The notes under the pieces were generated by a model. It was not told the origin of the DNA. It saw nothing but the letters and a program-made list of their open reading frames with translations, and did not search any database. Positions 40,595-61,437 of a DNA stretch of 64,000 nt are shown here, piece by piece (positions within the stretch are counted from its first letter, which is position 1; each line of letters begins with the position of its first letter). Location of the stretch: positions 1-64,000 of IMG/VR virus record IMGVR_UViG_3300046463_001154; one strand, 5' to 3'. Origin of the DNA: a virus. The position numbers were made by a program, and so were the translations under genes.

Positions 40595-40630
40595 CAAGGA
40601 AGGGGCTCGCCAACGAGCCCTGAATAAACC

Positions 40631-46991: not shown

Positions 46992-47059
46992 GCATCGTGG
47001 TGCGGGGGATTGCAACCGTCCGCTCAATCCCCTTCCTCCCGTTCTATGCAGGTTTGATT

Positions 47060-48586
47060 ATGGCTGAGCTTCTGATTCGTCTTCATTCGCATCACTTCGT
47101 TGTCAGCAAGGTGACGCCGCGTGCCATGCCCGCGGTGATCGGGTTCACCAAGCAATTCGTGCAACCACTTCGGACCAAGCCGAGTCCTTACTCGAAAAAG
47201 CCGCCGCCTAAGCCGGCCGTGTACGCAGCGCACTGTAGTGATACTGGGGAGTATCGCTACCACATCAACGTCTTCAAGAAGTTCGAGGAACATCTCGGCT
47301 ACCACAATCTCAAGGACTCACTGATCGAAATCGAACGTCCGGAGCTGCCAGCCGTACGTGAAGTGGAGCTGCCCATTTTCGACAAGTGGGATCTTCGCGA
47401 CTATCAGGACGAGGGCGTCGAGTATGTGCTGAAACCCGATGGCTCGGTGTCGAAATTGATCGAGTTCCAGACTGGTAAGGGTAAGGGCGTGACGTCTTTG
47501 TTTGCGGTGTCGAAGACCGGTCTCGCGCCGGTCATCATCGTGAAGCCGATGTACCTCGAGAAGTGGGTCGAAGAAATCCGCGACGTCTATGACATCGCTA
47601 TCGAAGACCTCATGGTTATTCGCGGGAGCGAACACCTGATGGCACTTCTTGAGATGGCTGCCGCCGGCGAGCTCACGAGCAAGATCGTCCTCATCAGTAA
47701 CAAGACGATCCAGAACTGGCTCAAGTTGTACGAGCGGTTCGGCGATCAGACGCTTGAGATGGGTTACGTGTGCCGTCCTTCGGAGCTCATGCAGACACTG
47801 CGTTCGGGCTTTCGCTTGATTGATGAAGTGCACCAGGACTTCCATCTGAACTTCAAGCTCGACCTGTACACGCACTGCCAACGTTCGCTCTCACTGTCGG
47901 CGACGCTCGAAAAGGAAGATGCGTTCATCAACCGCATGTACGAGATCGCGTATCCGACGCCCGACCGTCACAAGGGACCGGCGTACGACCGATACACGAA
48001 TGCGACCGCCCTCTTCTACCGAATCCAGCGTCCTGAAAAGATTCGATGCGTAGAGAACGGCAACTACTCGAACCATGTGTACGAGAAGTATCTGATGAAC
48101 AATCCGCAGGTGTGCTCTAACTACCTGCATTTGATCGATCAGGTGTTGAAGGCGAAATATCTCAGGAACTACCAGCCCACCGAAAAGGCAATCATCTTCT
48201 GCGCGTCGATCGAGTTTTGCACGCTCGTGACGGAGTTCATGCGCAAGCAGTATCCGAACATGGACGTGCGGCGATACGTCGAAGATGACCCGTTCGAAAA
48301 CTGTATCGAGGCAGACATTCGCGTGACGACTCCGCAGTCGGCAGGCACGGCAGTCGACATCCCGAACTTGACCACGAACATCATGTCGGTGGCGATTTCG
48401 AGTCAGCAGTCGATCCTGCAGATCTTCGGCCGTACGCGAAAGCTGAAATCCGGTAAGACTCCCGAGTGTGTTTCGCTGTACTGCTCGGATGTCGATAAGC
48501 ACGTGAGCTATCAGCAGAAGAACCAAGAACTGCTGCGCAACCGTGCTTTGAACTACTCGTCAGTTTTCATCCCCAACGCATTGTGA
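47060..48586 (+). CDS. SF2 (DEVH) helicase, phiKZ gp75-like; probable start MAELLI
   Basis: LRDYQ, QTGKGKG, DEVH, SAT, AGTAVDIPNL, QIFGRTR. Confidence 0.92.
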   Translation: MAELLIRLHSHHFVVSKVTPRAMPAVIGFTKQFVQPLRTKPSPYSKKPPPKPAVYAAHCSDTGEYRYHINVFKKFEEHLGYHNLKDSLIEIERPELPAVREVELPIFDKWDLRDYQDEGVEYVLKPDGSVSKLIEFQTGKGKGVTSLFAVSKTGLAPVIIVKPMYLEKWVEEIRDVYDIAIEDLMVIRGSEHLMALLEMAAAGELTSKIVLISNKTIQNWLKLYERFGDQTLEMGYVCRPSELMQTLRSGFRLIDEVHQDFHLNFKLDLYTHCQRSLSLSATLEKEDAFINRMYEIAYPTPDRHKGPAYDRYTNATALFYRIQRPEKIRCVENGNYSNHVYEKYLMNNPQVCSNYLHLIDQVLKAKYLRNYQPTEKAIIFCASIEFCTLVTEFMRKQYPNMDVRRYVEDDPFENCIEADIRVTTPQSAGTAVDIPNLTTNIMSVAISSQQSILQIFGRTRKLKSGKTPECVSLYCSDVDKHVSYQQKNQELLRNRALNYSSVFIPNAL

Positions 48587-48760
48587 AGCTAGGAGGTAGC
48601 AAGGAAACGTAGGAAACGAATCAAGGATCAACAAGAAAAAGAACGTAGGCCAGTACGGGGCCGGGCCATAGGGCGGCCCGGTTATAAATAGCTTTTTCGA
48701 TACGAGTATCACACTTGAACAGCAGCTGAATAACAATTCTTATAAACGAGGAAGTCAAGC

Positions 48761-49201
48761 ATGAATCGCGTTGTCATTAATCGCATCACCCCCGTCGGTA
48801 CCGCTATCGTGGAAATGTTGTATCTCATGTTCCAACATCAGGGATCACCTCGCGGCAATACGCACATCACTCAGCACACTGAGCGGAGCATGCGTGTCAC
48901 GCGCTTAAAGATGTTCGTCGAGAAGCATCCCGGAGGCCGCCACTTCGGCTGCCGTAACGCCTGGATCTGCGAGACGGACCGCAATGTGTTCAGTGTCTAT
49001 TTGACGGACTATGAGCAAACGACTGATCTCTTCAAGGATCACCAGTGCTTGGAAGATGGACTGGAGTTCTTGAACGGCTATGAGTATCAGTTGTCCGAAC
49101 TGTATCAGGCATGCCAGGACGTTCAAGATTTCCTGGTGAAAGAAAAGCTTCCGATGCGTGGTTTCCAACGCACGCCGGAGCTCGTCCAGAAAGCGGCTTA
49201 A
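48761..49201 (+). CDS. Hypothetical protein, 146 aa
   Basis: GAGGA RBS; followed by a terminator. Confidence 0.65.
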   Translation: MNRVVINRITPVGTAIVEMLYLMFQHQGSPRGNTHITQHTERSMRVTRLKMFVEKHPGGRHFGCRNAWICETDRNVFSVYLTDYEQTTDLFKDHQCLEDGLEFLNGYEYQLSELYQACQDVQDFLVKEKLPMRGFQRTPELVQKAA

Positions 49202-49215
49202 TACCGTAACGCAGG

Positions 49216-49260
49216 CTGCCAGGGGGAGACCCCTGGCAGTTATGCCGTCTTTGTTTTTTT
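49216..49260 (+). terminator. Terminator with TATGCCGT 3' flank
   Basis: CTGCCAGGGG-gaga-CCCCTGGCAG, TATGCCGT at 49241-49248, T run. Confidence 0.78.
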
Positions 49261-49275
49261 GCTGATCCTAGAAAG

Positions 49276-49301
49276 TTTCAGTCACATATGACGTCCCTGA
49301 A
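49276..49301 (+). promoter_or_regulatory. Putative phage early promoter (one mismatch)
   Basis: tttcagtca-CATATGAC (49285-49292)-gtccc-TGAA. Confidence 0.6.
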
Positions 49302-49362
49302 CCAGATCGAGTGTCGCCGAGCGCGGTGGCCTCGCTTATCGATTTCTTCAGGGACGTCAATC

Positions 49363-49704
49363 ATGAACGCAGAGAACAAGAAAGTGTTGGAACACATCAA
49401 GCTTCGCGGTGCGGAAATTGGCCACGTCTATAACTGCCAGTTCGGGGAACAGGGCGAGGCTCGCTACGAGGAAAACGCGCCGTGCGAAGTGCTCGCCATC
49501 AAGAAGGACGATGTCGGCAGGCCGGTTCTTTTGGTCCGCAAGCTGCAGCAGAAAAGACATATCGGGATCGCCACGCTCGGCGATGAAGGCACACACGGTG
49601 CGGTGTACTGCGCCCGCAGCCGGGTCATCGGTGCAGAAGGACCCGGCTGGCTTCGGCTCAATGGCCTTGCAGATGCCAAGCGCGCACTGGGCTGGCAAGA
49701 CTGA
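49363..49704 (+). CDS. Hypothetical protein; probable start MNAENK
   Basis: AGGGA RBS; downstream of the promoter motif. Confidence 0.6.
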   Translation: MNAENKKVLEHIKLRGAEIGHVYNCQFGEQGEARYEENAPCEVLAIKKDDVGRPVLLVRKLQQKRHIGIATLGDEGTHGAVYCARSRVIGAEGPGWLRLNGLADAKRALGWQD

Positions 49705-49761
49705 TCGACAACGTCGTCCAGCACGAATATTCTAACCACATCGAAAACAAGGAGTATCACC

Positions 49762-50250
49762 ATGAGCAAGAGAACGCCGGACCAAATCCACCGGGCAGCG
49801 GAAAGCCTTCGCGCAGAGTTGGCGGGCAAGATCGAGAAGTTCGGTTACACGCAACTCGTCATCTTCCCGACGGAAGAGGATCCTGACACCGTGAAGTTCA
49901 TGTACACCATCGGTCTGACCAAGAAGGGCTTCCCGGAGATTCTGGTCTCTGGCAACCTGACCAACCAGGGTGCAATGGACATCATTGCTGAAGTCGCAAG
50001 CGATCTGGAGCGCAACAACGGCCAGATTGAGATGGGCGTACGCGACGACCTGTTCAGCGTGCGTGTTGAACTGCGCGACGTAACCAGTCCCGTGGCACGG
50101 AACGAGTATGTCTGCCAAGCCGTGGAAATGTACGGCGAGCAGGTGCGCGTCATTCAAGTCGTTTGGGCGGATCCGAACAACTTCCTGCCAAACGAGGAGG
50201 GCTACGACTCCGCGAAGTGCGTGCAGGAATTCTTGCCGATGGTCCAGTAA
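49762..50250 (+). CDS. DUF4262-like protein, 162 aa
   Basis: FMYTIGLT..GFPEIL..G and QVVWAD...FLPNEEGY match the DUF4262 pattern; AAGGAG RBS. Confidence 0.75.
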   Translation: MSKRTPDQIHRAAESLRAELAGKIEKFGYTQLVIFPTEEDPDTVKFMYTIGLTKKGFPEILVSGNLTNQGAMDIIAEVASDLERNNGQIEMGVRDDLFSVRVELRDVTSPVARNEYVCQAVEMYGEQVRVIQVVWADPNNFLPNEEGYDSAKCVQEFLPMVQ

Positions 50251-50307
50251 AACGACTGCGGCGGGAAGACCATCCGTGTCCGATCTAACCTGAGAGAGGG
50301 TAAAATC

Positions 50308-50628
50308 ATGCGTGAGAAGCAGTTCAGCGCTACACAGCGCACAGTGTTGAATATGCTGTTGATGGACCCACCGACCTGCGCGGTCGAGATCAAAGCGGCG
50401 GCCGAGTATCTGACCGTACTCGCTGACCACATCAAGTTAGAAACGGAAGTTCGCAAACACGTCTGGTCCGAACGAGATCTTGAACTCGTCGCGAGCCTGT
50501 CGCAATCACTGGTCTCATCCACGTCGCAGCACATCGATCAAGAACAGCGTAACGCGCTGATTACTCACGCCCAGCTTGCGCTCATTCATCCCCGACTTGT
50601 CGTCTGTCTGGGCGACGAAATCGAATAA
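50308..50628 (+). CDS. Hypothetical protein, 106 aa
   Basis: GAGGG RBS; part of the + strand run. Confidence 0.55.
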   Translation: MREKQFSATQRTVLNMLLMDPPTCAVEIKAAAEYLTVLADHIKLETEVRKHVWSERDLELVASLSQSLVSSTSQHIDQEQRNALITHAQLALIHPRLVVCLGDEIE

Positions 50629-50640
50629 GGCATTACCTCC

Positions 50641-51168
50641 ATGAACGATACATTTGGCGAGGACATTCTCGCAATCAATCAACGCGCTTTCAATGAGCTG
50701 CGCGAATATCTCGCTGGACAGACTACTGACCATAAAGGCGTGGTGCTTGTCCCGTCGACGTCTGTCGCTCGCATCGGTAATGTGAAAGACGCGGCTGAAC
50801 AGATCCTGCTCGTGGCGAAGTATCTGAAGTTGAAGGTCTGGTCAGGCCTCATGGCCTGCTGCCTCGTCAACGGCGTGCTTCCCGTCGAGGGCAGTCTCGA
50901 TGCGGTCGATGCACTCACGACGTTCGACGGCCGTCAGCTCTCTGTCGCGAGCACGACAGCACATCGGATCCGCAGGGACCTGAGCGAATGGCGGACGTCC
51001 GAGCGCAACGTTGGGTTAGTAGATCCAGTTTCCTTCTTCGCGTGGTGCGAGGAAGAGGACATCGATACCAACTACGTTCGACTGTTCCGCGAGGTTGCCG
51101 GGTGCGGTGCAGGAAAGATGATCGGTGTCCTTCCGCTCGTCGACGTCGTGCGCTACAGCTACGATTGA
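50641..51168 (+). CDS. Hypothetical protein, 175 aa
   Basis: Part of the + strand run; followed by a terminator. Confidence 0.6.
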   Translation: MNDTFGEDILAINQRAFNELREYLAGQTTDHKGVVLVPSTSVARIGNVKDAAEQILLVAKYLKLKVWSGLMACCLVNGVLPVEGSLDAVDALTTFDGRQLSVASTTAHRIRRDLSEWRTSERNVGLVDPVSFFAWCEEEDIDTNYVRLFREVAGCGAGKMIGVLPLVDVVRYSYD

Positions 51169-51183
51169 TCTCCCCTGCTTGGG

Positions 51184-51223
51184 GGCATAGACGGCCTGGG
51201 AAAACCCAGGCCGTTTTTTATTT
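51184..51223 (+). terminator. Terminator with GGCATA 5' flank
   Basis: GGCATAG-ACGGCCTGGG-aaaa-CCCAGGCCGT followed by a T run. Confidence 0.78.
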
Positions 51224-51340
51224 GTCAGTTTCCTAAAGATTTGCTTCAGCGTTCCGATAACCGTCTGAGATGCGGCGGCCTCCGACTCCCTGTGTCCCCT
51301 GCCCTTTCGGGCAAACGTTTTCAAATAGAAAGGAACGAAC

Positions 51341-51994
51341 ATGTTGATTAAGTGCGCCGGCATTGGCCGGCTGGCTCTGTGTGCCTCACTGATTACCGCC
51401 TTGGCTGCCTGCTCGCATTCGCCGTCGGAGAGCGACGCGAAAGCGGTTATCAAGAGTCGTCTGGAAAACTGCGATTACCTTTCGCTCGATAGCTTCGATC
51501 GCGTGAACGGCATCGCTCAGGGAGACCAGTACTACAACGTCGCCGTCGCGTATTCCATTTCGCTTTCGAAGCCCGACAGCGACATCCGTGATCGGTTCAA
51601 GGAGCAGGCCAAGCTCACCAATCGAATTGCTGAGTTGCAGAAGGAATCTGCGGACAGCATGAAGGCGAGCCAGGAACAGTTCCACGAATACGAGCAGGCT
51701 CACCCTGACGATACCGATGCATCCGTCCACTTTGACGCAGAGGACTCGGGCAAGACCCTACGGGACAAGAACCGCGATGAAATCAACGAACTGAGCACCC
51801 AGCTCGCACAGGACAATGCCGCAGCGACCTGGTTGAATCGGCTTCGGAGCAGCTGCCCTCGCGCTGCAGACTCGTGGTTGTACACCATCAAACAGGTCCC
51901 GATGCAGGCTCTCCTCGATGGTGATGGCAAGATGAACTTCACGGAGACCATCGCAATGATCAAGACCGACAACGGGTGGCAGGCAGCACGCTGA
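51341..51994 (+). CDS. Lipoprotein with a coiled-coil insert, 217 aa
   Basis: Signal peptide with lipobox LAAC; AAGGA RBS; C-terminal IKTDNGWQ. Confidence 0.75.
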   Translation: MLIKCAGIGRLALCASLITALAACSHSPSESDAKAVIKSRLENCDYLSLDSFDRVNGIAQGDQYYNVAVAYSISLSKPDSDIRDRFKEQAKLTNRIAELQKESADSMKASQEQFHEYEQAHPDDTDASVHFDAEDSGKTLRDKNRDEINELSTQLAQDNAAATWLNRLRSSCPRAADSWLYTIKQVPMQALLDGDGKMNFTETIAMIKTDNGWQAAR

Positions 51995-52038
51995 GTGAAA
52001 CACGACGGGTCTCCGGACCCGTTTTTTTTGCTCAAAAA

Positions 52039-53187
52039 CTAAGCAGTCCTCATTAGATGCTTGGCTTCCAACAGGCTCCGCAGGCCGGCGATGTGTTCCC
52101 GAATCTGTGCCGTCACCGGCGGCCGTGCGCGTTCCTCGTTCGGCTTCGTGTACGAGTTGAGCGCTGGCTGGAACAAGTCGAGATCTGATGGCGTGGCGAG
52201 ACGGATCTGTCCGCGGGTGATCGCGTCAGCAAAGCCTGCCTTCCATGCAGCGGCCTGACGTCCGATGCCCTCATCGCGGTTGTAGATGACCATGCCCTCG
52301 CCTTCCGCGTCGATCACGTACTTGCGCTGACCGGAGACGTCGACAAAGGTCTGGCCTGCGCTATGACGAGCGATCTGGTCTGCCTCAAACTTGCGCTTGA
52401 GCTGGACCTCTGCCCTCACCTTCGCTTCATTGCGGTGGCGGAGCAGGTGACCGAAGTCCACTGTGCCGCGTAGGAGGCTCCGGAGATAGTTGATCGGGGC
52501 CTTGGCGCGCTTCAGGTGCTCCCACGTTACCTCGACCACATCGGAAAGTCGCTTGCCGTGCTCGCCCGCTTCCCGCATGAGTTTGAAAATCAAGAAATCA
52601 AAAAAACCCAGGGACCGCAGGCGTTGAAGATCCTCAGGCACTTGCCCCGGTTGTCTCTTTTGAAAAACAGAAGGGCTTAGATCCTTATATATACCACCGT
52701 CTGCCAACTTGGCAGACGGGTGCTCAAACGAAGGTGAGGGCGCTTGTGCGGGCTGCACTACCTTCGCTTCCATGGGCTCAACGAGGCCCAGCAAAGCGGC
52801 AGCGTGCTCTGTGAGATGGATGTAGGCACGGCCGAAGAGACCGGCTTCTACGTAGCGCGCTTGGGCGCGGCGATCGATTAGACCGGCAGACTCCAGATCG
52901 TCGAGGCTCCGGTAGAACGTCCGCATGGATTGCAACGCGCGCCCCGTCAGCAACTCGCGACGGGCGAAGATTGCAGCGTAGGGTTTAGCGGCGTCCACGG
53001 TGCGGGCGAGGGCGGATAGAACCGCTCGGGCACGAGGAGGGATCTCTTCGATGTGCGAGGCCCGGAACGCTGCACGGAAGATAACCCAGGGCAGGTTGGT
53101 CGTGTCGCAGCGAAAGGCGGTAAGGGCGGCTGAATCGTCGGGGTGTGTGTCACCCTCGCCAGCAACGAACTGTTGCGCGATAGACAT
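52039..53187 (-). CDS. Plasmid/chromid replication initiator (Burkholderiales 'replication protein O'-type Rep), 382 aa
   Basis: N-terminal winged HTH (RARAVLSALARTVD...SMRTFYRSLDDLESAGLI); directly downstream of parA-parB on the same strand; AT-rich internal linker. Confidence 0.8.
   Translation of the reverse strand: MSIAQQFVAGEGDTHPDDSAALTAFRCDTTNLPWVIFRAAFRASHIEEIPPRARAVLSALARTVDAAKPYAAIFARRELLTGRALQSMRTFYRSLDDLESAGLIDRRAQARYVEAGLFGRAYIHLTEHAAALLGLVEPMEAKVVQPAQAPSPSFEHPSAKLADGGIYKDLSPSVFQKRQPGQVPEDLQRLRSLGFFDFLIFKLMREAGEHGKRLSDVVEVTWEHLKRAKAPINYLRSLLRGTVDFGHLLRHRNEAKVRAEVQLKRKFEADQIARHSAGQTFVDVSGQRKYVIDAEGEGMVIYNRDEGIGRQAAAWKAGFADAITRGQIRLATPSDLDLFQPALNSYTKPNEERARPPVTAQIREHIAGLRSLLEAKHLMRTA
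52697..52719. promoter_or_regulatory. Perfect 11-bp inverted repeat inside rep beside an AT-rich stretch (candidate oriV)
   Basis: CCGTCTGCCAA-C-TTGGCAGACGG; AT-rich from about 52580 to 52695. Confidence 0.5.
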
Positions 53188-53224
53188 GTCGAGCGGTCCA
53201 TTTTCAAAAATGGATTGAAGACGC

Positions 53225-53360
53225 TTGACTGTCTCTCGCTATCCGTTACACTCGGGTCTGTTGAGGTCCGCTACCGGTTGGCGCCGGGAGTGTGACGGGT
53301 GAGGTTGAGTCAACCAAGCCCTCGAAAGCCTTCGGTTCGCCCCGAAGGCTTTTGTTTTTT
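53225..53360 (+). ncRNA. Predicted counter-transcribed (antisense) RNA of about 100 nt in the parB-rep gap, with its promoter and terminator
   Basis: TTGACT (53225-53230)-16 nt-TACACT (53247-53252); terminator AAAGCCTTCGG-ttcgcc-CCGAAGGCTTT plus T run; opposite strand to rep; no ORF. Confidence 0.65.
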
Positions 53361-53410
53361 CTACGTGGGTTAGTGCATGGCGGTTCCGTTTAAGTTAAAC
53401 GCCGTTGAAT

Positions 53411-54409
53411 TTAAAGGGTTTTATTTTCAGAACCCTCTTGCAGCACCTTCTGAATGGCTGCCTGAAGACGTTCTGCTTCCGCTTCCGACGCGAATTGCAG
53501 GCGCATGACATTCTTAGCGCGCCTCAGTTCGCAATACACCGACTTCCCTTGCTTTACTTTGACCGTGACCGGTACGGCTGCCGGCGACGCGGCTTTGGTC
53601 GGCTCAGCCGCCGCGAGCTTGACCGTCTGGCCTTGGTCGATTTCTCCAGCCGCCAGTCGCTTAAATGCCGCTGTTACTTGTTCGCCCCTGCCCTTCTTGG
53701 TCAGTCCAGCAAGCTGAAAAGCAGCCGCGGAGCCGAGGAGGGTGGGGCGTTCCGCGACCGAAGCCAAGACTTCCGTCGGCAGGTTCTCGAAGGCCAAAAG
53801 AAACGAGATGACGGTCTCAGAAACGCCCGTCCGCTCGGAGAGCTGCCCTCTGGTGAGATTGGGCTGCCTCGCAAGGATCCCCTTCAGTCCGACGTACTTC
53901 TCGTAATCCGTTAAGTCCGACTGCATCAAGTTGGCGAAGAACGCGCTGTCTGTGACCTCAGGATCAGTGCCTTCCAAGATGACCGCTTGAATGCTGGATC
54001 GCCCTAGTTCCCGGTAAGCATCGATTCGGTGGTGACCGGAGACGATTTCGTATCGTCCTTCGGCACCACGGCGCACGACGACAGGATGCACGAGCTGGTT
54101 ATGCCGGAGGTTCTCACGCAGTTCGGCGAACTTTTCTGGCGGCATGTGACGCCGCCGCCCCGCTACCTCCACGAGCTCTTGCAACTTAACTTCCATCGCC
54201 GCGTTTCCACCGTTTGCCACCTGGTCACGCAGCGCGGCCATTTCCGCAGACATCGCGTCGATTTCCGCTTGCTTCTCCTTGAGAAGTGGCATGGCGTGCA
54301 ACATCGCGCCTGGTGCTGTTTTCGGCTGGCGCGGTAGCGGCGGGTTCGGAAGGTCGACCACCGGAGCGATCAGTGCGGTTTTTGCCGCTAGCCTATCTTT
54401 GATGCTCAC
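53411..54409 (-). CDS. parB: ParB/RepB partition protein; probable GTG start at 54409
   Basis: HPVVVRR...YEIVSGHHRIDAY ParB box, ANLMQSDLTDYE, HTH; GTGA overlap with the parA stop and AAGGAG RBS. Confidence 0.92.
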   Translation of the reverse strand: MSIKDRLAAKTALIAPVVDLPNPPLPRQPKTAPGAMLHAMPLLKEKQAEIDAMSAEMAALRDQVANGGNAAMEVKLQELVEVAGRRRHMPPEKFAELRENLRHNQLVHPVVVRRGAEGRYEIVSGHHRIDAYRELGRSSIQAVILEGTDPEVTDSAFFANLMQSDLTDYEKYVGLKGILARQPNLTRGQLSERTGVSETVISFLLAFENLPTEVLASVAERPTLLGSAAAFQLAGLTKKGRGEQVTAAFKRLAAGEIDQGQTVKLAAAEPTKAASPAAVPVTVKVKQGKSVYCELRRAKNVMRLQFASEAEAERLQAAIQKVLQEGSENKTL

Positions 54410-55641
54410 AATGACTCCTTCTGCGCTTCCCACAGCGCTACGATTTCTTGATCGATCATTTCAGCGAACCGATCGTACGCCTCGCGGGCCCGTTGGTAAG
54501 TTCTAGTGCTTCCGTCGTACTTGGCTATGTCATAAACCGTCCCGAACTCTGCCGCAGCACTCGCTGTCACCGTTGTCGTCGGGATCTCAACCGGAAGAAC
54601 GAAGGATTCATAGGTCCGATTAATCCAGTCACGGACGGCGTGCGTCGAGGCCAGGCTGGAATCGACCTTCGACAGAAGCACATGGATGAAGTCGAACCGT
54701 TTGTTATCGACCTCAGGTACCAACCCCTTCATGCTGTCGGCAAGGTCCGCGAAGAGATTCCAAAATTGGGTCGACGAGGCGTAGTCCAGCGCGCTCGGGG
54801 GCGTGGGCACGATAAGAGCATCGGCCGCCATAAACGCATTGATGGTCATGTACGACAGTGCGGGCGGCGTATCAATGATGACGACGTCGTAATCATCCAA
54901 GCACGGCTCGAGCCCTTTGTTTAGGACGTTCCAAAATTCGAAGGTAGGATCCTTCGACTGCTTGAAAGGTAGGAAGAATTCGGCCCCAAACAGCGCGGCA
55001 CTCGCCGAGATTAGATCAATTCCGTCCCAGTACGTCGATTTGATCGCGTACTCCACGCTCTGATGTTCTCCGTAGACGAGGGGTAGGACGGTCTGGTCTT
55101 CCTCCACCTCGCTGTCCGCCAAGATACCCGTGAGCGCCGTCAGCGAAGCTTGCGGGTCCAGGTCAATCAGCAACACACGTCGCCCGTAGAGAGACAGGCC
55201 TTGGGCCAACGTCATCGCAGTGGTAGTCTTGCTGACTCCGCCCTTGAAGTTGCCGATGGCGATCTTTTTGCCCTTCACGCCCGGGGGCCGTTTGGTGAAC
55301 GGTCCGAGCTTTGCGATCCATTCGCGCGTTTCTGTTAGAGTGAACTCACGCGTCCGGTTCGCTGCAGTCCCCGGCGGAAGTCCGAGCTCGGGCTTGTCCC
55401 ACGAGTAAATAACTTTTTTGCGGTCCACCCGACAGAGCGCCGCTACCTGCGAAGTCGTAAAGACCGGAGAGCGCTTGCGGGGGTGGGGCGCGAGCATGCT
55501 TTCACGGACGTTGACCAGCATCTGGCTTGCGTGATCCGCAACCTTTCGAAGGTCGCTTAGCGGAACCCCTGGCAGAACGTGTTTCACCGCGGGTGCGATG
55601 GAAACGATTGGTTTATCAACACGGAGACGTGCGTCAGCCAT
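54406..55641 (-). CDS. parA: Type Ia ParA partition ATPase with N-terminal HTH; probable start MADARL
   Basis: Deviant Walker A NFKGGVSKTT, IDLDPQASLT, IIDTPP; long N-terminal extension (FTTSQVAALC) typical of plasmid ParA. Confidence 0.95.
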   Translation of the reverse strand: MADARLRVDKPIVSIAPAVKHVLPGVPLSDLRKVADHASQMLVNVRESMLAPHPRKRSPVFTTSQVAALCRVDRKKVIYSWDKPELGLPPGTAANRTREFTLTETREWIAKLGPFTKRPPGVKGKKIAIGNFKGGVSKTTTAMTLAQGLSLYGRRVLLIDLDPQASLTALTGILADSEVEEDQTVLPLVYGEHQSVEYAIKSTYWDGIDLISASAALFGAEFFLPFKQSKDPTFEFWNVLNKGLEPCLDDYDVVIIDTPPALSYMTINAFMAADALIVPTPPSALDYASSTQFWNLFADLADSMKGLVPEVDNKRFDFIHVLLSKVDSSLASTHAVRDWINRTYESFVLPVEIPTTTVTASAAAEFGTVYDIAKYDGSTRTYQRAREAYDRFAEMIDQEIVALWEAQKESL

Positions 55642-55939
55642 AATTGGCGCCTCTGTCCTTCGGACACAATAAAGCGATTCGTTCAAGTCGGTTTGTTTTC
55701 GCCAAAAACGCGTACCAAAGACAGAACATTGGCGAAAGTGCTTCGAACTGTAAACGGTAAACCGGAAGGTGACAAGGTAAACCGTTGTTGCGAAGCCGCG
55801 CCGGGACTAGCTTTCGCGGATAAACCTCGAATCAGTCTTAAGATGGATCGCCGACGTGAAACAACGACTGTCAAGGTTGAAGGCTGTCGATGTCGTGCCA
55901 AATCAAAGACTTAGGTCCCCGGCGGCGATTTTGTTTCAC

Positions 55940-55957
55940 GAGTTCGGAACCGAACTC
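55940..55957. promoter_or_regulatory. Candidate parS centromere palindrome upstream of parA
   Basis: GAGTTCGG-AA-CCGAACTC. Confidence 0.5.
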
Positions 55958-56123
55958 CGCCGGGCGGCAGCATATTCGGCATCCAGACCACCCGTAGCGT
56001 GCCCAAGAGGGCTACAGAGCTAGAAACGTAACGAACAGTACGTTTTTTGTAGTGCAAGGGCTTGCAACTAACCGTCTACCAATTTGAGGCGCGCAACGAC
56101 GGTCGACGAAAGCGTGTAGGATA

Positions 56124-56139
56124 CTGTTCACCCATACAG
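56124..56139. promoter_or_regulatory. LexA (SOS) box upstream of imuA
   Basis: CTGT-TCACCCAT-ACAG matches the beta/gamma-proteobacterial CTGT-N8-ACAG; ends 14 nt before the imuA ATG. Confidence 0.85.
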
Positions 56140-56153
56140 TGCTTGTTGCCGTC

Positions 56154-56867
56154 ATGTCCGCACTACCGAAAAACATTGAAGAGATCCATCCGTCGTTGTG
56201 GCGAGCCAATCAACTGGCTCGCAGGGCAGGGCGCACCGTGGACACCGGTTACGAGAAGCTCTCCGCCGAGTTGCCCGGTGGTGGATGGCCAGTTGGCAAT
56301 CTCGTCGAGTTGTTAGTTCAGCAGCCGGGGATAGGGGAGATCCGGATGCTCCAGCCCGCGCTCGCAGCCGTAGCGAAAAGGCCGGTCGTCTTCGTCAAAC
56401 CGCCGCATGTCCCTGACGCAATGGGTCTCTCGTATATTGGCCTGCCCATCGATAAGCTAATTCGGCTGGAAGTCGGTAGGACCGCCGATGTGCTGTGGGC
56501 GACCGAGCAGATACTGAAGGCCAACACGTGCGGGGCAGTGTTGCTTTGGCAGCAGCACATTCGCCCTGAGTCTCTCCGCCGACTTCTGCTTTGCTCGCAA
56601 TCGTCGGAGATGCTGTTCTTTGTCCTGCGCCCGCTCGTCGCTGAGAACGACACATCGCCCGCGGTCCTACGACTGGCTATTCGTCCGGCCGCAGGTGGCG
56701 TATCGGTCGACATCGTAAAGCGCAAAGGCCCGGTCGGCGTTGAACCCTTCAACCTTGCGTTGAGGCCTTCGCCCATTCTACTGAGCCCATATGGTCGCTC
56801 GAACAAGCCTGCTCGAAAGCTAGAACCTGTGGCGATCCTGGCAAACACGCAAGCAACGGTGGAGTGA
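56154..56867 (+). CDS. imuA: ImuA (RecA/SulA-like translesion synthesis-associated protein)
   Basis: IHPSLWRANQL...TGYEKLSAELPGGGWPVGNLVELL...GIGEIRML...LWATEQIL...LRRL...SPAVLRL...IVKRKG. Confidence 0.92.
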   Translation: MSALPKNIEEIHPSLWRANQLARRAGRTVDTGYEKLSAELPGGGWPVGNLVELLVQQPGIGEIRMLQPALAAVAKRPVVFVKPPHVPDAMGLSYIGLPIDKLIRLEVGRTADVLWATEQILKANTCGAVLLWQQHIRPESLRRLLLCSQSSEMLFFVLRPLVAENDTSPAVLRLAIRPAAGGVSVDIVKRKGPVGVEPFNLALRPSPILLSPYGRSNKPARKLEPVAILANTQATVE

Positions 56868-56868
56868 G

Positions 56869-57189
56869 ATGCCGCGCAAGTTGCCGCGCTTTGAGCCCGT
56901 AGGCGTGGAGGAGGGCAGGGCGCTCTGGAAGAAGTACCGCAATAATGCAGACATCCAGCGTCTGCTCTTGGAGATAGCACACGGCCGGCAGGTCTTCGCG
57001 GATCTCGACGGCTACTTTTCCGTGGTGCAAAAAGTCTGGCAAGAACAAGGTCTCGGGCAGCTCGTTGCCATGGAGAAGATGCGGTTACTGCTCGTCGAAC
57101 AGAGCCTGCGTCAGCGCACACTCACGGGGCTGAAACCAGCGCCCAGGAAAGATGAACCTGGAGAACCTGAGCCCGCGCTAGTCGACTAG
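56869..57189 (+). CDS. Hypothetical protein co-transcribed with imuA, 106 aa
   Basis: Starts 1 nt after the imuA stop; GGAG RBS. Confidence 0.65.
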   Translation: MPRKLPRFEPVGVEEGRALWKKYRNNADIQRLLLEIAHGRQVFADLDGYFSVVQKVWQEQGLGQLVAMEKMRLLLVEQSLRQRTLTGLKPAPRKDEPGEPEPALVD

Positions 57190-57190
57190 T

Positions 57191-57844
57191 TCAATGACCG
57201 GAAGATCTGCGTCCAAAACCGAGAGCGGCAGGGCGGCTGTACTTCGAATTCTTTACTTTGAGCCAGTCGCGAGAACGCCCCGCTTGGTAGGGCGAGTCTA
57301 GACGCTTCGCCATCAGACCCTCGAGGTCGTGCGCGATGGCTTGCTCGAATACCCACTCTCCCGCGGTTTCAATGCCGACTGGACAAACCAGCACTGGCGT
57401 GTCATCGAAGGTCTCTCGAAGAATCTTTTTGCGCTCGTTGAGCGGCATGCCACGGAGGTCATCGTTCCCCGCCGCAAGGATGTCGAAAACGTAGAGACGG
57501 GCAGGGTGCTCGCGAGCAGCCGCCCGCACGCGCATCGGGATGCGAGTCCGGGCACGTGTCTGGAGTCGTTCGAATGAAGGGCGCCCGTTCTGTTCGTCAA
57601 CGGTCAGTTCAGCGTCCCAAATGAAATTGCCCGGCACTGCCTCAACGGCCTCGATTATGTCTGGAAAGGTCGAATTGAGCGGCGTGCCGTGACGGGAGAA
57701 AAGATCCACCCTTTCCTCGCACTTTCGTACGAACGCCCTGTATCCATCGTATTTGATTTCAAAAATCCATCCTTCGCGAGAGAAGGGTGCACGCGCAAGA
57801 ACGCCATGCATCAGGTCGCTTGGCTCGATCACCGGCAGACCCAC
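57191..57844 (-). CDS. ATP-dependent DNA ligase, adenylation domain only (LigC/LigD-like), 217 aa
   Basis: EIKYDGYR (motif I), DAEL, YVFDIL, EGLMAKR, WLKVK; no OB domain. Confidence 0.88.
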   Translation of the reverse strand: MGLPVIEPSDLMHGVLARAPFSREGWIFEIKYDGYRAFVRKCEERVDLFSRHGTPLNSTFPDIIEAVEAVPGNFIWDAELTVDEQNGRPSFERLQTRARTRIPMRVRAAAREHPARLYVFDILAAGNDDLRGMPLNERKKILRETFDDTPVLVCPVGIETAGEWVFEQAIAHDLEGLMAKRLDSPYQAGRSRDWLKVKNSKYSRPAALGFGRRSSGH

Positions 57845-57846
57845 GC

Positions 57847-58344
57847 CTAGCCGCCCGCTTCGTGCGGGGGCGCGTCCTTAAGCCAAGTGAGGATTGTCGG
57901 CCTAAGCGTGAACGCGGGCGCTTTCAGCCAATCTTCAACGGCTTCCGGAATCTCCGGCAGTACCTCGTCGACGTCGAACGGCTCGTCCGGTTCACCCGGC
58001 TGATCGACGGAAAGATGGGCACCAGCCAACCGGTCACCGTCCCAGTACAGCACGCAATACTCCGCGATGTCGGCCGTTGTTCCAGGCGGATGGTCGCGCA
58101 GCAGCATGCTGATATTCGAGCATTGCTTCTTGAGATCGTCGCTCATTGCGTAGCCGCTAGGGTTCGCCGGTGGAAAGCTGGCTGTCACGAACGCTAGCTT
58201 GGCCCAAGCGTTGTCTGGATGGCAGCCCGAGTAGGCGCAGAAATGCTCGAAGTCGTCGAGCGCATTATGACCATATTGGTTCGCCTTAAGTGGGCGCGCT
58301 CGCAGAAGCTCCGCAAGCATCTCGTCAGGTTTTCCGTAGCACAT
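57847..58344 (-). CDS. Hypothetical protein; probable start MCYGKP
   Basis: GGGAGG RBS; ends 2 nt before the ligase start. Confidence 0.55.
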   Translation of the reverse strand: MCYGKPDEMLAELLRARPLKANQYGHNALDDFEHFCAYSGCHPDNAWAKLAFVTASFPPANPSGYAMSDDLKKQCSNISMLLRDHPPGTTADIAEYCVLYWDGDRLAGAHLSVDQPGEPDEPFDVDEVLPEIPEAVEDWLKAPAFTLRPTILTWLKDAPPHEAGG

Positions 58345-58403
58345 GTCGACCTCCCTCTGATAATCTGCCCGCAGCAAGGCTGATACCCGCAACGGAGACA
58401 GCG

Positions 58404-58658
58404 ATGGTCAAGGTTGAGTTAGATCTGAGCGACGACATATATCGCAGCTTGGTCATGGTCGCCGAGGCTTGCAGCGTCGCAAATAAGCAACGCGACGGCG
58501 CGACCACTCACGGTCCACTGGATGTCAAAGCGCTGCTTATGATGCTTGCCGAGGATGCAGCCATGGTTCACAGCCGGCCCGGCTCATGGGAAGGTTCGAA
58601 TGCGTCCGAGCTCTTGGCGTCACACGGCTACTGCGTGTCAAGAAATAGGGACAGGTAA
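58404..58658 (+). CDS. Small hypothetical protein (possible RHH-like N-terminus)
   Basis: GGAG RBS; MVKVELDLSDDIY...RPGSWEG. Confidence 0.55.
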   Translation: MVKVELDLSDDIYRSLVMVAEACSVANKQRDGATTHGPLDVKALLMMLAEDAAMVHSRPGSWEGSNASELLASHGYCVSRNRDR

Positions 58659-58677
58659 AAGTTCGATAGAAACAATT

Positions 58678-59277
58678 ATGTCAAATCAAAGTGCGATTCT
58701 GGTTTTTCTGACATCTTCAATTGTCTTTACGCTGTGCATCTTTGCCATACTTAGAACCCAGCGAAACCTTGGCCGCCTCAGACTTTCGGTAATGCTCGCG
58801 GTCACTGCGGTTTGTTACTTCATCATTGCCACACTCTTGTGGTTCGCGATACACGACTGGCTATCATACGGCCGCGATCTCATCCCGGCGATTCTTCTGC
58901 TCATTTGGGAGTTCGTTGTACTTGCGGTCCTGTACTACAGATCGCCGCTGACAAAGCTGACTGCAATAGGCGTGATCGTAGCCTGGACCATTTTCATGTA
59001 CACCCGTTTCTACATGACCTCTGGGGTATGCAGCGACGCTGACTGTCTGGCGATCAACGTAAAGCACGACTGGCGCAGTGCGCTGTACTTTAGTGTGATC
59101 ACCTTCACCACGACCGGCTACGGCGACTACCACCCGCGCGAGCCGGATAGACTCATCGCCGCTTCCGAAGCTCTCGTCGGCTATATTTTTTTCGGCCTTT
59201 TTGTGTCGCTGCTCGCTTCATATTTCTCACGTTCGGAATCCCGCGAAGATCGAGGGGAAGGACATTTCAGCGGGTAA
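58678..59277 (+). CDS. Potassium channel-like membrane protein (Ion_trans_2 pore domain)
   Basis: ALYFSVITFTTTGYGDYHP selectivity filter; several upstream TM helices. Confidence 0.85.
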   Translation: MSNQSAILVFLTSSIVFTLCIFAILRTQRNLGRLRLSVMLAVTAVCYFIIATLLWFAIHDWLSYGRDLIPAILLLIWEFVVLAVLYYRSPLTKLTAIGVIVAWTIFMYTRFYMTSGVCSDADCLAINVKHDWRSALYFSVITFTTTGYGDYHPREPDRLIAASEALVGYIFFGLFVSLLASYFSRSESREDRGEGHFSG

Positions 59278-59301
59278 TGTCTTGCTTTGTCCCGCTTGGG
59301 G

Positions 59302-59628
59302 TTACTCTGCGATCAAAAACTTCTCGCGCTTCTTTCCCTTAATCCAAAGGGGCTCACGGCCGCGGCCGCTCCAAGTCGCGCCCGTCTTCGGATCCTGATA
59401 CTTCGCTGCGACCCGTTTCTTAGCGACAGATTTCGATCCCTTCTTCGCCGGCCCTCGCTTTCCTTTCGTGTCGATGTCCGCGATCGTCAGTCCGTACTGA
59501 GCCATCAGCGAACTGATCTGTTCGAGCGCCGCCTTGCGTCGCGCCTCTTCTTCTTTAGCCACCTGTCCCTGCACCTTCGCCAATTGTTCACGCAGTTTGT
59601 CGAGCCGCGCATTCGGTTGCATTGCCAT
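59302..59628 (-). CDS. hns: H-NS family nucleoid protein (Burkholderiales type)
   Basis: N-terminal coiled coil, MAQYGLT, KYQDPKTGATWSGRGREPLWI; AGGAG RBS. Confidence 0.93.
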   Translation of the reverse strand: MAMQPNARLDKLREQLAKVQGQVAKEEEARRKAALEQISSLMAQYGLTIADIDTKGKRGPAKKGSKSVAKKRVAAKYQDPKTGATWSGRGREPLWIKGKKREKFLIAE

Positions 59629-59760
59629 GCTGTTTTCTCCTGAGGAATGCGGGATTGTAGCAACCGGCGGATCCGGATTCAAAACAATCTCAGACCTATA
59701 TGACTCGCCCGAAGCCATCGAGAGATCGATAGCGAAATCAATCTAACCTCGGAGCGAATC

Positions 59761-59937
59761 ATGATCGACTTTGCAAACAACAACTACCATTCTGGCAAGA
59801 AGGCAAACACGGGCTCAACGAAGCGTGGCTTCATCATTACCCTTTTCTTCATCTTCGGTGGCCTCTCGCTCGTCGTCGCTGACCACGTCGGTCACCACAT
59901 GGCGTCGCAGCGCGCGGCTGAAGTCGCGAGCCGTTAA
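59761..59937 (+). CDS. Small single-TM protein, 58 aa
   Basis: GGAG RBS; MIDFANNNY...GFIITLFFIFGGLSLVVA, translated by hand. Confidence 0.5.
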   Translation: MIDFANNNYHSGKKANTGSTKRGFIITLFFIFGGLSLVVADHVGHHMASQRAAEVASR

Positions 59938-59961
59938 AATCAGCGCACTTCAGGAATATCC

Positions 59962-60495
59962 ATGTTTCACAAATCCAATCCAACACCCATATCCAGGACC
60001 ATGGCTCTGATGTCCATGGTCTGCCCCATCTGCGACAGCGGCTTCACCCGATACGCTTCGAAGGTACGGCGATGCGATGTGTGTTGTTGTAGTCGAGCAT
60101 GCTCAGCCAAGGCTCGAGAAGTTCGCATATCGGTCAGCTGCGCAGTATGCGAAAAAGAGATGGAGCTGATACCGTCAAACGTCGGTAAAGTGACCACGTG
60201 CAGCAAGAAGTGCTCTAGTCTGCGGCGCCGATCCGCGAATCCTAAAGCACAATCGTTGCGCGCTTACAAGGACGCTGTCGATCGAATCGCAGCTGGACAG
60301 TTATGCGAAAAGTGCGGAAGGAAACACGGCCCGTTTGTAGTAAAGGATCTTAAAGCAACGTTTGGAGACGATGGAGAACTGGCAATCGATGATGCTCGAG
60401 CCAAACTCTGGTGTCGTCAGTGTCACCTACAGAGCATCGCGCTGGTCGGTGGCAATGCCAACGGAGCGCGTCTCGGTGGAATTAGGAAAACGTAA
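59962..60495 (+). CDS. Zn-finger repeat protein with a degenerate HNH-like C-terminus
   Basis: Two CxxC...CSxxC repeats, then CEKCG...LWCRQCH. Confidence 0.65.
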   Translation: MFHKSNPTPISRTMALMSMVCPICDSGFTRYASKVRRCDVCCCSRACSAKAREVRISVSCAVCEKEMELIPSNVGKVTTCSKKCSSLRRRSANPKAQSLRAYKDAVDRIAAGQLCEKCGRKHGPFVVKDLKATFGDDGELAIDDARAKLWCRQCHLQSIALVGGNANGARLGGIRKT

Positions 60496-60509
60496 GACAT
60501 CAAACTGAG

Positions 60510-60562
60510 ACGGCATATCGGGAGGGTGCGAGCCCTCCCGATATGACTTTCCTTCTTTTTTT
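60510..60562. terminator. Hairpin between convergent genes, flanked by ACGGCATA and TATGAC
   Basis: CATATCGGGAGGG-tgcgag-CCCTCCCGATATG followed by a T-rich tail. Confidence 0.75.
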
Positions 60563-60566
60563 GATT

Positions 60567-61016
60567 TCAGCGTGGCGACAAGCAGATCCGAACCCGCAAC
60601 TCCAATGGGTCGAGCCACTCCACGATCAAGGGATAGACATCATCCCATCGCAGCTTGCCTTCCCCACATCCGATCATCGGCATCGCGATAGACCGGATCT
60701 GATACTTTTCGAAATCGCGCGCGAGTCGTTTTAGACCTTCGTCGATCCAGTGAAGTCGAGATGGGTTGGCCCAATGACGCTTCGTCGGAAAGCAGACAAT
60801 CAGTTTCCCGTTCTCCGCTTCCCACACAAAGAGCCCGTGGTTTGAAAACACTCGCCGGCGGCACGCATCTCGATACGCTGCTTCAAGACCTGGATACCGC
60901 AAAGCGAAGGCTCTCGCCAAACCCTTGCCCATTGTACCCACTACGTTCACCGGCACCACCAACGCCTGACATGCCGAAGTGAAGACATCTTGCACAGATA
61001 CCTGCTCGATCATCAT
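60567..61016 (-). CDS. Macrodomain protein (DarG/TARG1-like ADP-ribose glycohydrolase), 149 aa
   Basis: PVNVVGTMGKGLA, FPTKRHW, SIAMPMIGCGEGKL motifs. Confidence 0.9.
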   Translation of the reverse strand: MMIEQVSVQDVFTSACQALVVPVNVVGTMGKGLARAFALRYPGLEAAYRDACRRRVFSNHGLFVWEAENGKLIVCFPTKRHWANPSRLHWIDEGLKRLARDFEKYQIRSIAMPMIGCGEGKLRWDDVYPLIVEWLDPLELRVRICLSPR

Positions 61017-61369
61017 CCCTCCGCCATGCGCTGAATCTCATCGACCACGTCTTCCTGCGTCTTCGCGTTGCTCTGTTGACGCTTGAGCGACATCTCTAAA
61101 ACGAACCGTACGATGTCTGACGGCAGCTCAAGGAACTCCACCAGGTTCAGACCAAAGTGCTTGTAGACTTGCCGCTCTTCGAATCGCCGAATCTGCTCGT
61201 ACAGAAGACCGCCCGACGAACTATCTTCCGCCTCCCGCATCGCGACCAAAGAGAGCGCGTCATTGGGACCCGATCGCGAGTGATCGTAAATGCGGTAGGT
61301 GGTTTCGTAGCAGTCGCGCAGCGCCAGCTGCAGGTCCGAAGAATTGAGCACGGTGGGCGCGCGTTCCAT
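61013..61369 (-). CDS. Tail-assembly-chaperone 'T'-like ORF, possibly translated as a -1 frameshift extension of the gp77-like gene
   Basis: VYKHFGLNLVEFLELP motif; its frame stays open upstream to the T7 run at 61483-61489. Confidence 0.6.
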   Translation of the reverse strand: MERAPTVLNSSDLQLALRDCYETTYRIYDHSRSGPNDALSLVAMREAEDSSSGGLLYEQIRRFEERQVYKHFGLNLVEFLELPSDIVRFVLEMSLKRQQSNAKTQEDVVDEIQRMAEG

Positions 61370-61437
61370 TGCGGCCTTCAGTGGATTCTCTTCCTCGACG
61401 TGCTCGCCAAAGTCTGGCTGCGCGACGTGCCGCGGTC

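Follow-up and report, generated by a model that had tools for sequence, protein, structure and literature searches.

A chimallivirus genome with a Burkholderiaceae megaplasmid-type replicon: a candidate phage-plasmid among nucleus-forming jumbo phages

We analyzed a 64,000-nucleotide stretch of viral DNA (hereafter the window), which comprises bases 1–64000 of the 79,841-bp IMG/VR rhizosphere viral contig IMGVR_UViG_3300046463_001154 (G000), and found that it carries a plasmid-type parA-parB-rep cassette among the core genes of a chimallivirus, that is, a nucleus-forming jumbo phage. We put the probability at about 0.6 that this phage is able to persist in Caballeronia as an episome of low copy number with active partition, while still being capable of nucleus-forming lytic infection. 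A sequence-only reading of the window had already interpreted the phage as an extrachromosomal prophage, and most of the computational checks that it proposed came out in favor of that interpretation, which we regard as supported. Characterized chimalliviruses are lytic. Phage-plasmids are known and chimalliviruses are known; a literature search found no paper describing the two together and, as far as we could find, their combination appears to be new.

Results

A parA-parB-rep cassette interrupts the core genes of a chimallivirus

As the sequence-only reading had proposed, the three co-oriented genes lie on the minus strand at 52039–55641, between a helicase gene and a gp77-like gene. The first, parA (54406–55641, minus strand), encodes 411 amino acids from its ATG, within an open reading frame (ORF) that remains open to 55686 (426 amino acids), and matches AAA_31 (E = 3e-37) and phrog_164 (E = 2e-58). 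The protein is a Walker-type ParA with an N-terminal extension of ~130 residues; its ATPase domain begins at about residue 140 of the 426-residue ORF (about residue 125 from the ATG). Its best NCBIfam match is the repABC RepA model TIGR03453 (203 bits, below the cut-off), and its nearest phage relatives are the ParA proteins of the N15/PY54/phiKO2 group (31–33% identity). Next to it, parB (53411–54433, minus strand) encodes a 340-residue centromere-binding partition protein with a ParB_N domain (E = 1e-11) and a match to TIGR00180 (64.6 bits) that is above the cut-off. A long Walker-type ParA next to a ParB with ParB_N is the arrangement of a type Ia-like ParABS system.

The third gene, rep (52039–53187, minus strand), encodes a 382-residue putative replication initiator by homology to proteins that NCBI names 'Replication protein O'. 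The product is 77–79% identical to Caballeronia proteins and 55–70% identical to hundreds of 'Replication protein O' entries of Paraburkholderia and Burkholderia, several of which are plasmid-borne; identity to the plasmid-borne relatives of Burkholderia sp. KK1 and SFA1 is ~65%. We therefore refer to it as a putative plasmid replication initiator of the Burkholderiaceae megaplasmid type. A tblastn search against phages returned no match for Rep, and a PDB sequence profile search returned nothing below E = 0.2. The RepC models of Pfam (RP-C and RP-C_C) did not match the Rep of the window, RP-C reaching E = 0.028 in 2 of 31 homologues, and RepC clusters were among its language-model neighbors only at 0.90–0.91. 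An AlphaFold2 model of the protein (mean predicted local distance difference test score, 74.8) has an N-terminal winged helix. Our literature search found no experiment on this Rep type or on its replicon type.

On both sides of the cassette the window encodes a phiKZ-type core, most of which the sequence-only reading had named correctly. The gene for chimallin, the phage nuclear shell protein (28248–30215, plus strand), matches phrog_4795 over residues 5–636 (E = 6e-102); in a tblastn search it matched 135 phiKZ-like phage records. A scan against PHROGs also recovered the DNA polymerase (21073–23241), the large terminase (within 4064–7033), an SbcD-like nuclease, one virion protein, and three beta-type subunits of the non-virion RNA polymerase (nvRNAP; 30620–32149, 42700–44949, and 45000–46991; phrog_2987, phrog_3295, and phrog_3015). 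Two items of the earlier core list fared less well. The PhuZ-like gene (13095–14099) has weak matches to Tubulin (E = 3.5e-6) and to the phage domain TubZ_C_2 (E = 3.5e-5), neither of which reaches its Pfam cut-off, and PicA could not be verified by name; three proteins of ~500 residues at 37521–42142 match unnamed phiKZ-type PHROGs only. The last core gene to the left of the cassette is the phiKZ gp75-like helicase (46997–48586, plus strand; phrog_16, E = 1e-29), and the first to its right is the gp77-like gene (61438–63030, minus strand; phrog_4585, E = 5e-102).

The nearest complete relative, G001, is a metagenomic IMG/VR genome of 278,988 bp that was assembled as a circle (127-bp end overlap, CheckV completeness 100%). 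Its collinearity with the source contig extends over all 79.8 kb, at 75–88% nucleotide identity, and the cassette occupies the same position. The core synteny claimed by the earlier reading runs on at both sides in the window and in G001 alike. Protein identities between the two are 82% for the helicase and 91% for both chimallin and the gp77-like protein; the C. arationis chimallin (see below) is likewise 91% identical, whereas Burkholderia phage FLC9 shares 45% with the chimallin and 42% with the gp77-like protein (FLC9 gp360). G001 also encodes an intact major head protein, tail sheath, tail fibers, and a 1452-residue virion RNA polymerase (vRNAP; phrog_3148). With chimallin and nvRNAP subunits in the window, and vRNAP in G001 outside the region corresponding to the window, the phage shows both the shell protein and the split RNA polymerases of the Chimalliviridae. 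The window probably belongs to a Caballeronia-infecting chimallivirus with a full genome of ~280 kb.

The cassette resembles a whole megaplasmid replicon with its control elements

The co-oriented parA-parB-rep block matches 159 PLSDB records, mostly of Burkholderia, Paraburkholderia, and Caballeronia; the examples among the matches listed are 141–601 kb in size and 68–73% identical at the nucleotide level, and in B. glumae plasmids the block stands at the start of the record. By sequence, the cassette is the replicon of Burkholderiaceae megaplasmids, and a whole replicon rather than stray genes. The plausible cis elements that the earlier reading had mentioned proved better than expected, since several are conserved between phage and plasmid copies.

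The 223-bp gap between parB and rep contains a predicted antisense (counter-transcribed) RNA gene (53225–53362, plus strand) with a promoter, two hairpins, and a terminator. Consensus scans found the promoter TTGACT-16-TACACT (53225–53252) on the strand opposite rep and, independently, a terminator ~100 nucleotides past it (53323–53354), consisting of a 13-pair hairpin followed by a T-run. These elements are kept in seven phage and plasmid copies. RNAalifold predicted 20 pairs, seven of which show compensatory changes on both sides, and the minimum free energy of the RNA is −50.5 kcal/mol (z = −4.25); no counter-transcribed RNA family of Rfam matched. By analogy with the counter-transcribed RNA of repABC plasmids, we infer that it would limit rep expression. 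Just upstream of the rep start codon lies the palindrome TCCATTTTCAAAAATGGA (53197–53214), a candidate operator or translation-control site that is conserved in plasmid homologues (alignment A1).

Inside rep, at 52562–52719, an AT-rich tract (65–70% AT) is followed by a perfect 23-bp palindrome, CCGTCTGCCA-N3-TGGCAGACGG (52697–52719). Its arms are identical in all phage and plasmid copies examined, in which the surrounding coding sequence is ~70–78% identical, and it falls where rep encodes a low-confidence linker (residues 140–177). Such constancy amid diverged linker-coding sequence is most simply read as a constraint at the DNA level. We consider tract and palindrome a candidate, and probable, origin of replication, comparable to the one within repC. 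No iteron-like direct repeats were found in 51–56.4 kb, and the only DnaA-box-like site found has one mismatch.

At the other end of the cassette, a predicted parA promoter (TTGTCA-17-TACAGT, 55775–55747, minus strand) is preceded by several candidate operator or parS sites: the palindrome GAGTTCGGAACCGAACTC (55940–55957), GTGAAACA/TGTTTCAC half-sites near it, and, also nearby, an inverted repeat, AAACGTA..TACGTTT (~56025–56047). G001 and plasmid PAMC 28687 p1 share both the promoter and the half-sites (alignment A2).

Related phages with the same cassette are found in cultured bacteria

The search for other replicons that unite chmA with parAB-rep, which the earlier reading had proposed, yielded G001 and three bacterial assemblies. 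Scanning one genome per prokaryote species for a chimallin pattern gave two matches. Hidden Markov models run on the species genomes of Caballeronia (69) and Paraburkholderia (213) added one further Paraburkholderia genome (G079), and no additional chimallin match came from 399 other genomes sampled from the same family. G079, a Paraburkholderia species-representative, has chimallin, parB, and rep on one contig. In Paraburkholderia sp. BCC1886, the phage is a circular contig of 286,074 bp (exact 125-bp end overlap, 58% GC) with no host flank; it is collinear with G001 throughout, has parA, parB, and rep ~22 kb from chimallin, and conserves the head, sheath, fiber, and vRNAP genes at full length. 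A circular contig of more than 200 kb in a bacterial assembly was found for a relative, whereas the source contig that the earlier reading had asked about is a 79.8-kb metagenome fragment and not a closed replicon.

The third assembly, that of Caballeronia arationis LMG 29324 (G002), sharpens the earlier guess of a Burkholderiales host to Caballeronia. It contains one chimallin, and its phage is 82–93% identical to that of the window at the nucleotide level. The phage is present as two contigs (143.7 and 74.1 kb) that are collinear with G001 end to end, have no bacterial flank, and both break at the island that holds the cassette. Three small contigs of the same assembly (C145, C413, and C445) each carry rep-parB-parA-imuA with a LexA box, and their Rep proteins are 85–92% identical to one another. 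The module contig is not joined to the phage contigs; the end of one contig, C275, matches C145 at only 93.5%. We also noted two further Rep homologues in this assembly (C323 and C591). Together with the three small contigs, they may reflect several plasmids that have their replicon type in common with the phage, or variants within the assembly.

Taken together, the module is present in all three phages from bacterial assemblies (in C. arationis on a separate contig) and absent from all three relatives found elsewhere, namely FLC9, which is cultured and lytic, and two complete metagenomic genomes. This contrast is suggestive, given the small numbers and no phylogenetic correction. A 172-kb fragment derived from an isolate (G004) ends ~1.7 kb before the helicase and is uninformative on the module. 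In terms of phage-plasmid hallmarks, a replication gene and a partition system stand on one molecule, a linkage that recurs in three other genomes, and the structural and packaging genes are accounted for by the terminase in the window and by the remainder in G001 and the BCC1886 element.

The replicon has been retained under selection and its partition genes exchanged

Between the window and G001, the ratio of nonsynonymous to synonymous substitution rates (dN/dS) of rep is 0.14 at a synonymous divergence (dS) of 0.86. The corresponding values (dN/dS and dS) are 0.11 and 1.12 for the helicase, 0.18 and 0.30 for chimallin, and 0.12 and 0.43 for the gp77-like gene, and over all core genes measured they range from 0.04 to 0.18 and from 0.3 to 1.1. 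Since rep falls within both ranges, it fits co-divergence with the phage under purifying selection. This inference relies on the pairwise dN/dS values and not on population single-nucleotide polymorphisms, of which 8 of the 19 listed in rep and parB are synonymous and 11 are not, a weak and biased sample.

The partition genes have a different history. ParA and ParB are 45% and 48% identical, respectively, to the G001 alleles, with saturated dS, and both genes are intact in both phages. Judged from these sequences, one of the sister phages has exchanged its partition allele, as expected of incompatibility pressure in plasmids. In four phage lineages, with chimallin identities that fall to ~60% or below, the distance between cassette and chimallin is ~21–22 kb. 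In a tree of Rep proteins, for which the genomic context of many neighboring sequences was not read, the four phage copies are not monophyletic, and each is placed within the plasmid-type Reps of the host genus concerned. The GC content at third codon positions (GC3) of the cassette is 0.65–0.69, compared with 0.52–0.69 in plasmid copies and 0.74–0.80 in the phage core.

The same Rep family (59% identical) also occurs on two large viral contigs, L125 (IMGVR_UViG_3300047321_000298, 245,517 bp) and L124 (153,706 bp), which are not among the chimallin matches, and replicon capture by Burkholderiaceae jumbo phages looks recurrent. IMG/VR viral genomes of 138,880 and 140,992 bp from isolate genomes (L024–L025 and L126–L127) encode a ParB with 48–49% and a Rep with 58–60% identity; they are close in size to the 141-kb plasmids of B. 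glumae and may be plasmids or other phage-plasmids.

The join between phage and cassette is present in independent assemblies

The source contig has no end repeats and is ~30% complete according to CheckV. The stretch occurs in ~20 metagenome runs of rhizosphere and soil that come from 17 studies, with no isolate and no RNA run among them, and the depth of the phage was 9–57 in the four runs examined. The earlier reading had made its interpretation depend on read support at both junctions, and this is borne out by Logan contigs from runs distinct from the likely source: these bridge the span from the helicase to rep (X5 record 24, 47620–52692), rep-parB-parA-imuA (X3 record 19, 53175–57065), and the right junction from the macro-domain gene to the gp77-like gene (X3 record 21, 60556–62730). 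Summed depth is level over core and module (for example, ~57 versus 47–67 in X2). Within 57940–60330, depth falls to between one third and one half of that of the flanks in other runs, and to zero in one soil run. We noted that this strain-variable segment holds a K-channel-like gene and the H-NS gene, and that one contig replaces 58474–58663 with 852 other letters. A contig of one soil run offered a joint from 47574 to 61511 that would omit the island; it is supported by only 23 letters at 90% likeness and was therefore not counted as an island-less variant.

Accessory genes of the island

The cassette is part of an island (48587–61437) between the helicase and the gp77-like gene, a variable hot spot of accessory genes that gave no nucleotide match among deposited phages by megablast, and, over 48–62 kb, no Rfam match at E ≤ 1. 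At its left end, five small ORFs (146, 138, 162, 106, and 175 amino acids) occupy 48761–51168 on the plus strand, end at a terminator hairpin (51189–51216), and are partly conserved in G001; the 162-residue product is a DUF4262 protein (49762–50250, E = 3e-20). They are followed by a predicted lipoprotein gene (51341–51994, plus strand; 217 amino acids, LAAC lipobox, no family match), which is variable: in a soil contig from run X14, unrelated sequence of 359 letters replaces 51542–51896. Lying beside rep, it might, speculatively, be a superinfection-exclusion or surface-modifying gene as in temperate phages.

To the right of parA, a LexA box (CTGT-N8-ACAG, 56124–56139) stands directly before imuA (56139–56867, plus strand; 242 amino acids), which matches the equivalog NF033429 at 211 bits against a cut-off of 150; the LexA-boxed imuA named in the sequence-only reading is thus confirmed. 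A LexA box precedes imuA in every genome examined, and the strong ACTGT..ACAGT form is found in G000, G001, and the three C. arationis contigs. imuA is normally part of an imuA-imuB-dnaE2 cassette. Here imuB-dnaE2 is absent beside it and a 106-residue ORF comes next, an arrangement also kept in G001, the BCC1886 element, and the C. arationis module contigs. The remaining genes are a LigD-type ATP-dependent DNA ligase consisting of the adenylation domain only (57191–57844, minus strand; 217 amino acids, DNA_ligase_A_M, E = 2e-34; positions 7–188 of the 302 of TIGR02779), whose length is kept in the sister genomes G001 and G003; an Ion_trans_2 potassium-channel-like membrane protein in the lower-depth variable segment (58546–59277, plus strand); an H-NS family nucleoid-associated protein (59302–59718, minus strand); an HNH-like Cys-rich protein (59962–60495, plus strand; phrog_1271, E = 1e-10); a macro-domain protein (60567–61016, minus strand; E = 1e-10); and a 118-residue ORF (61013–61369, minus strand). 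The H-NS gene, also recognized by the earlier reading (Histone_HNS, E = 7e-14), has its own sigma-70-like promoter (59682–59654) and is kept in G001 and C. arationis.

Discussion

A model for persistence outside the phage nucleus

The sequences show which genes are present, how well they are conserved and under what selection, that the cassette descends from plasmids, and that such phages occur as separate contigs in cultured strains. On this basis, we propose the following model for the replication, partition, silencing, and induction of this phage. In some infections, the shell would not be formed or would be abandoned. The naked genome would then be copied by the host replisome, recruited by Rep, from the origin inside rep; the antisense RNA would hold copy number low, and ParABS would segregate the genome on the host nucleoid. 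Host RNA polymerase would read the sigma-70 promoters of the island, and thereby par, rep, the H-NS gene, and the LexA-controlled imuA, while the lytic program, which needs virion-delivered and phage-encoded RNA polymerases, would stay largely silent. This plasmid prophage, or stabilized carrier state, would later return to the nucleus-forming lytic cycle via some trigger.

ParA-type partition uses the host nucleoid as its matrix, and a Rep protein needs the host replisome. Neither nucleoid nor replisome is expected inside a chimallin shell, and the cassette would therefore make sense only in a shell-free state. Moreover, limiting copy number by an antisense RNA and partitioning the copies suit the life of a low-copy plasmid and are of no use in runaway lytic replication. 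More tentatively, and with the odds rather against it, the genome may alternate between two states, shelled and lytic or naked and plasmid-like, in a form of lysogeny that needs no repressor because the lytic promoters depend on a polymerase delivered by the virion. The phage H-NS could add silencing in the plasmid state.

Several observations weigh against persistence as a plasmid prophage. First, no tyrosine integrase, as the sequence-only reading had noted for the window, and no S24-type repressor were found in G000 or in the complete G001, the repressor search having covered Peptidase_S24 and no other repressor type. No lysis/lysogeny control was thus recognized, and the one conserved LexA box per genome serves imuA and not a lytic regulator. 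Second, the initiator role of Rep is assigned from context and annotation: the protein matched no family in Pfam, PHROGs, or NCBIfam, its similarity to RepC and HTH_36 is weak, and fold searches (Foldseek and a wide search) returned generic winged helices (MarR-like, Z ~7), among them one plasmid initiator (4pta, Z = 6.2, likewise generic). Third, no parS was identified; none of the candidates (55940–55957, 53387–53401, and the GTGAAACA half-sites) is repeated. Sigma-70-like and terminator-like sites are no more numerous in the island than in shuffled sequence, and therefore only the conservation of such sites carries weight. Fourth, the source is a metagenome fragment, a circular assembly is equally expected from a circularly permuted virion genome, and a tblastn search of PLSDB with chimallin found no closed plasmid that encodes it. 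Lastly, replicon-less chimalliviruses (Seoulvirus and Goslarvirus) are common in isolate assemblies, where they are read as persistent infections (10.1101/2024.12.31.630880; PMC12768965). Carriage in culture is hence not proof of a plasmid state, because phages that have no replicon show the same pattern.

Alternative explanations

The last point leads to the strongest alternative, that carrier-state lytic infection accounts for the bacterial assemblies and that the cassette is a selfish hitchhiker or recent cargo with little role in lifestyle. Besides the precedent of the replicon-less phages and the lack of a repressor or integrase in the searches described above, the site itself agrees with such an origin: the locus is a hot spot of variation at which FLC9 carries only ~3.4 kb, and the lower GC3 of the cassette marks it as foreign. 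Useless cargo would, however, be expected to decay in a phage, and its retention therefore counts against a passenger cassette. Purifying selection on rep at core-like divergence, the retained control RNA, origin-like palindrome, and promoters, the same locus in four diverged lineages, and partition genes that are intact although swapped all point the same way, and we consider this alternative unlikely.

Another possibility is that the cassette is used during lytic growth or in competing with other elements, for instance by starting replication in an alternative way before the shell closes, by positioning DNA early in infection, or by displacing megaplasmids of the same type via incompatibility. 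The several rep-parB-parA-imuA contigs and two further Rep genes of C. arationis, with replicon types common to phage and plasmids, would suit competition, as would phage Reps that nest among the plasmid Reps of the host genus, and ParB-only genes do occur in lytic jumbo phages (10.1101/2024.12.31.630880). A copy-limiting antisense RNA and partition are nevertheless the opposite of what runaway lytic replication needs, contact with the host replisome and nucleoid would not be expected inside the shell, and no lytic chimallivirus in the phage collection has both ParA and Rep. Such a use is, in our judgment, quite improbable as the explanation for the cassette.

The elements in bacterial genomes could also be domesticated or defective megaplasmids derived from a chimallivirus that make no virions. 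The window contig covers only ~30% of a genome and by itself leaves room for such a relic. The earlier reading had held that loss of capsid, tail, or vRNAP genes would make the phage a relic; these are intact in the complete sister G001, and the BCC1886 element retains head, sheath, fibers, and vRNAP at full length. The window itself has intact genes for terminase, chimallin, nvRNAP, and DNA polymerase; core genes evolve at dN/dS of 0.04–0.18; and the phage occurs abundantly in at least 17 studies of rhizosphere and soil, at the depths given above. A domesticated element is accordingly very unlikely. An assembly chimera of phage and plasmid, which might be suspected in a metagenome contig with a module that is repeated in related hosts and at which isolate assemblies break exactly, is effectively refuted by junctions bridged at even depth in other runs and by the identical join in G001, BCC1886, and G079.

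Relation to known systems

The genome has the makings of a phage-plasmid in that, like P1, the N15/PY54/phiKO2 group, SSU5, and the jumbo pBtic235 of Bacillus thuringiensis, it combines a tailed-phage genome, a replication gene, and ParA/ParB without an integrase. It differs from these in its chimallivirus core, with a shell protein and its own multisubunit RNA polymerases, and in that neither a C1/CI-type repressor nor an antirepressor or addiction module was recognized in it. We know of no phage-plasmid group with a chimallivirus core. The replicon, too, is neither the RepA-iteron type of P1 nor the RepA/telomerase type of N15, and resembles the Burkholderiaceae parA-parB-ctRNA-rep type (ctRNA, counter-transcribed RNA). 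Burkholderia sp. PAMC 28687 plasmid 1, RPE67 p2, and the 141-kb B. glumae plasmids have the same genes in the same order and orientation (~68–73% nucleotide identity) and share the antisense RNA, the rep-start palindrome, and the intragenic palindrome; the window cassette, by contrast, is embedded in a phage genome and has a GC3 between those of plasmid copies and phage core.

With the repABC replicons of Alphaproteobacteria, the cassette shares the order of partition ATPase, DNA-binding partition protein, ctRNA in the gap, and initiator with an internal origin. The top-scoring models for ParA and ParB are those of RepA and RepB, but with scores below cut-offs, Rep does not qualify as a RepC, and the ctRNA between the genes corresponds by position and form, with no Rfam match. 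We therefore regard the replicon as an analogue of repABC and at most a very distant relative.

Among the Chimalliviridae (phiKZ, 201phi2-1, Goslar, Seoulvirus), the phage is typical in its chimallin, split nvRNAP/vRNAP, PhuZ-like tubulin, phiKZ-type head, sheath, and terminase, and core gene order. The nearest named phage, FLC9 (LC667451, 321.8 kb), has no ParA. The persistent Goslar- and Seoul-like chimalliviruses described by Dougherty et al. (10.1101/2024.12.31.630880) and in a second study (Nat Microbiol, PMC12768965) resemble it in that their whole genomes form separate contigs in assemblies of cultured bacteria; they were screened and found to be without ParA and plasmid replication genes (10.1101/2024.12.31.630880), whereas the phage of the window has a full replicon. 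In its main text, a 2025 Annual Review on these phages makes no mention of a temperate or plasmid state.

Implications for chimallivirus biology

Chimalliviruses have been studied as strictly lytic phages whose shell hides DNA from host enzymes. A regulated low-copy replicon implies a stage in which the 280-kb genome would be unprotected in the cytoplasm and reliant on the host for replication, partition, and transcription. It raises the questions of how the choice between shell and plasmid is made, how lytic genes are kept off and turned on again without an injected polymerase, and how a naked genome survives restriction and CRISPR. A full replicon with copy control also offers a mechanism for chimallivirus persistence, and may explain why these phages recur in 'pure' cultures. 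For phage therapy and biocontrol, it bears on the assumption that jumbo phages are unable to lysogenize. If our interpretation is true, the phage would provide plant-associated Burkholderiaceae with a very large gene-transfer vehicle, and C. arationis LMG 29324, a public type strain, and Paraburkholderia sp. BCC1886 would be natural lysogens already in culture.

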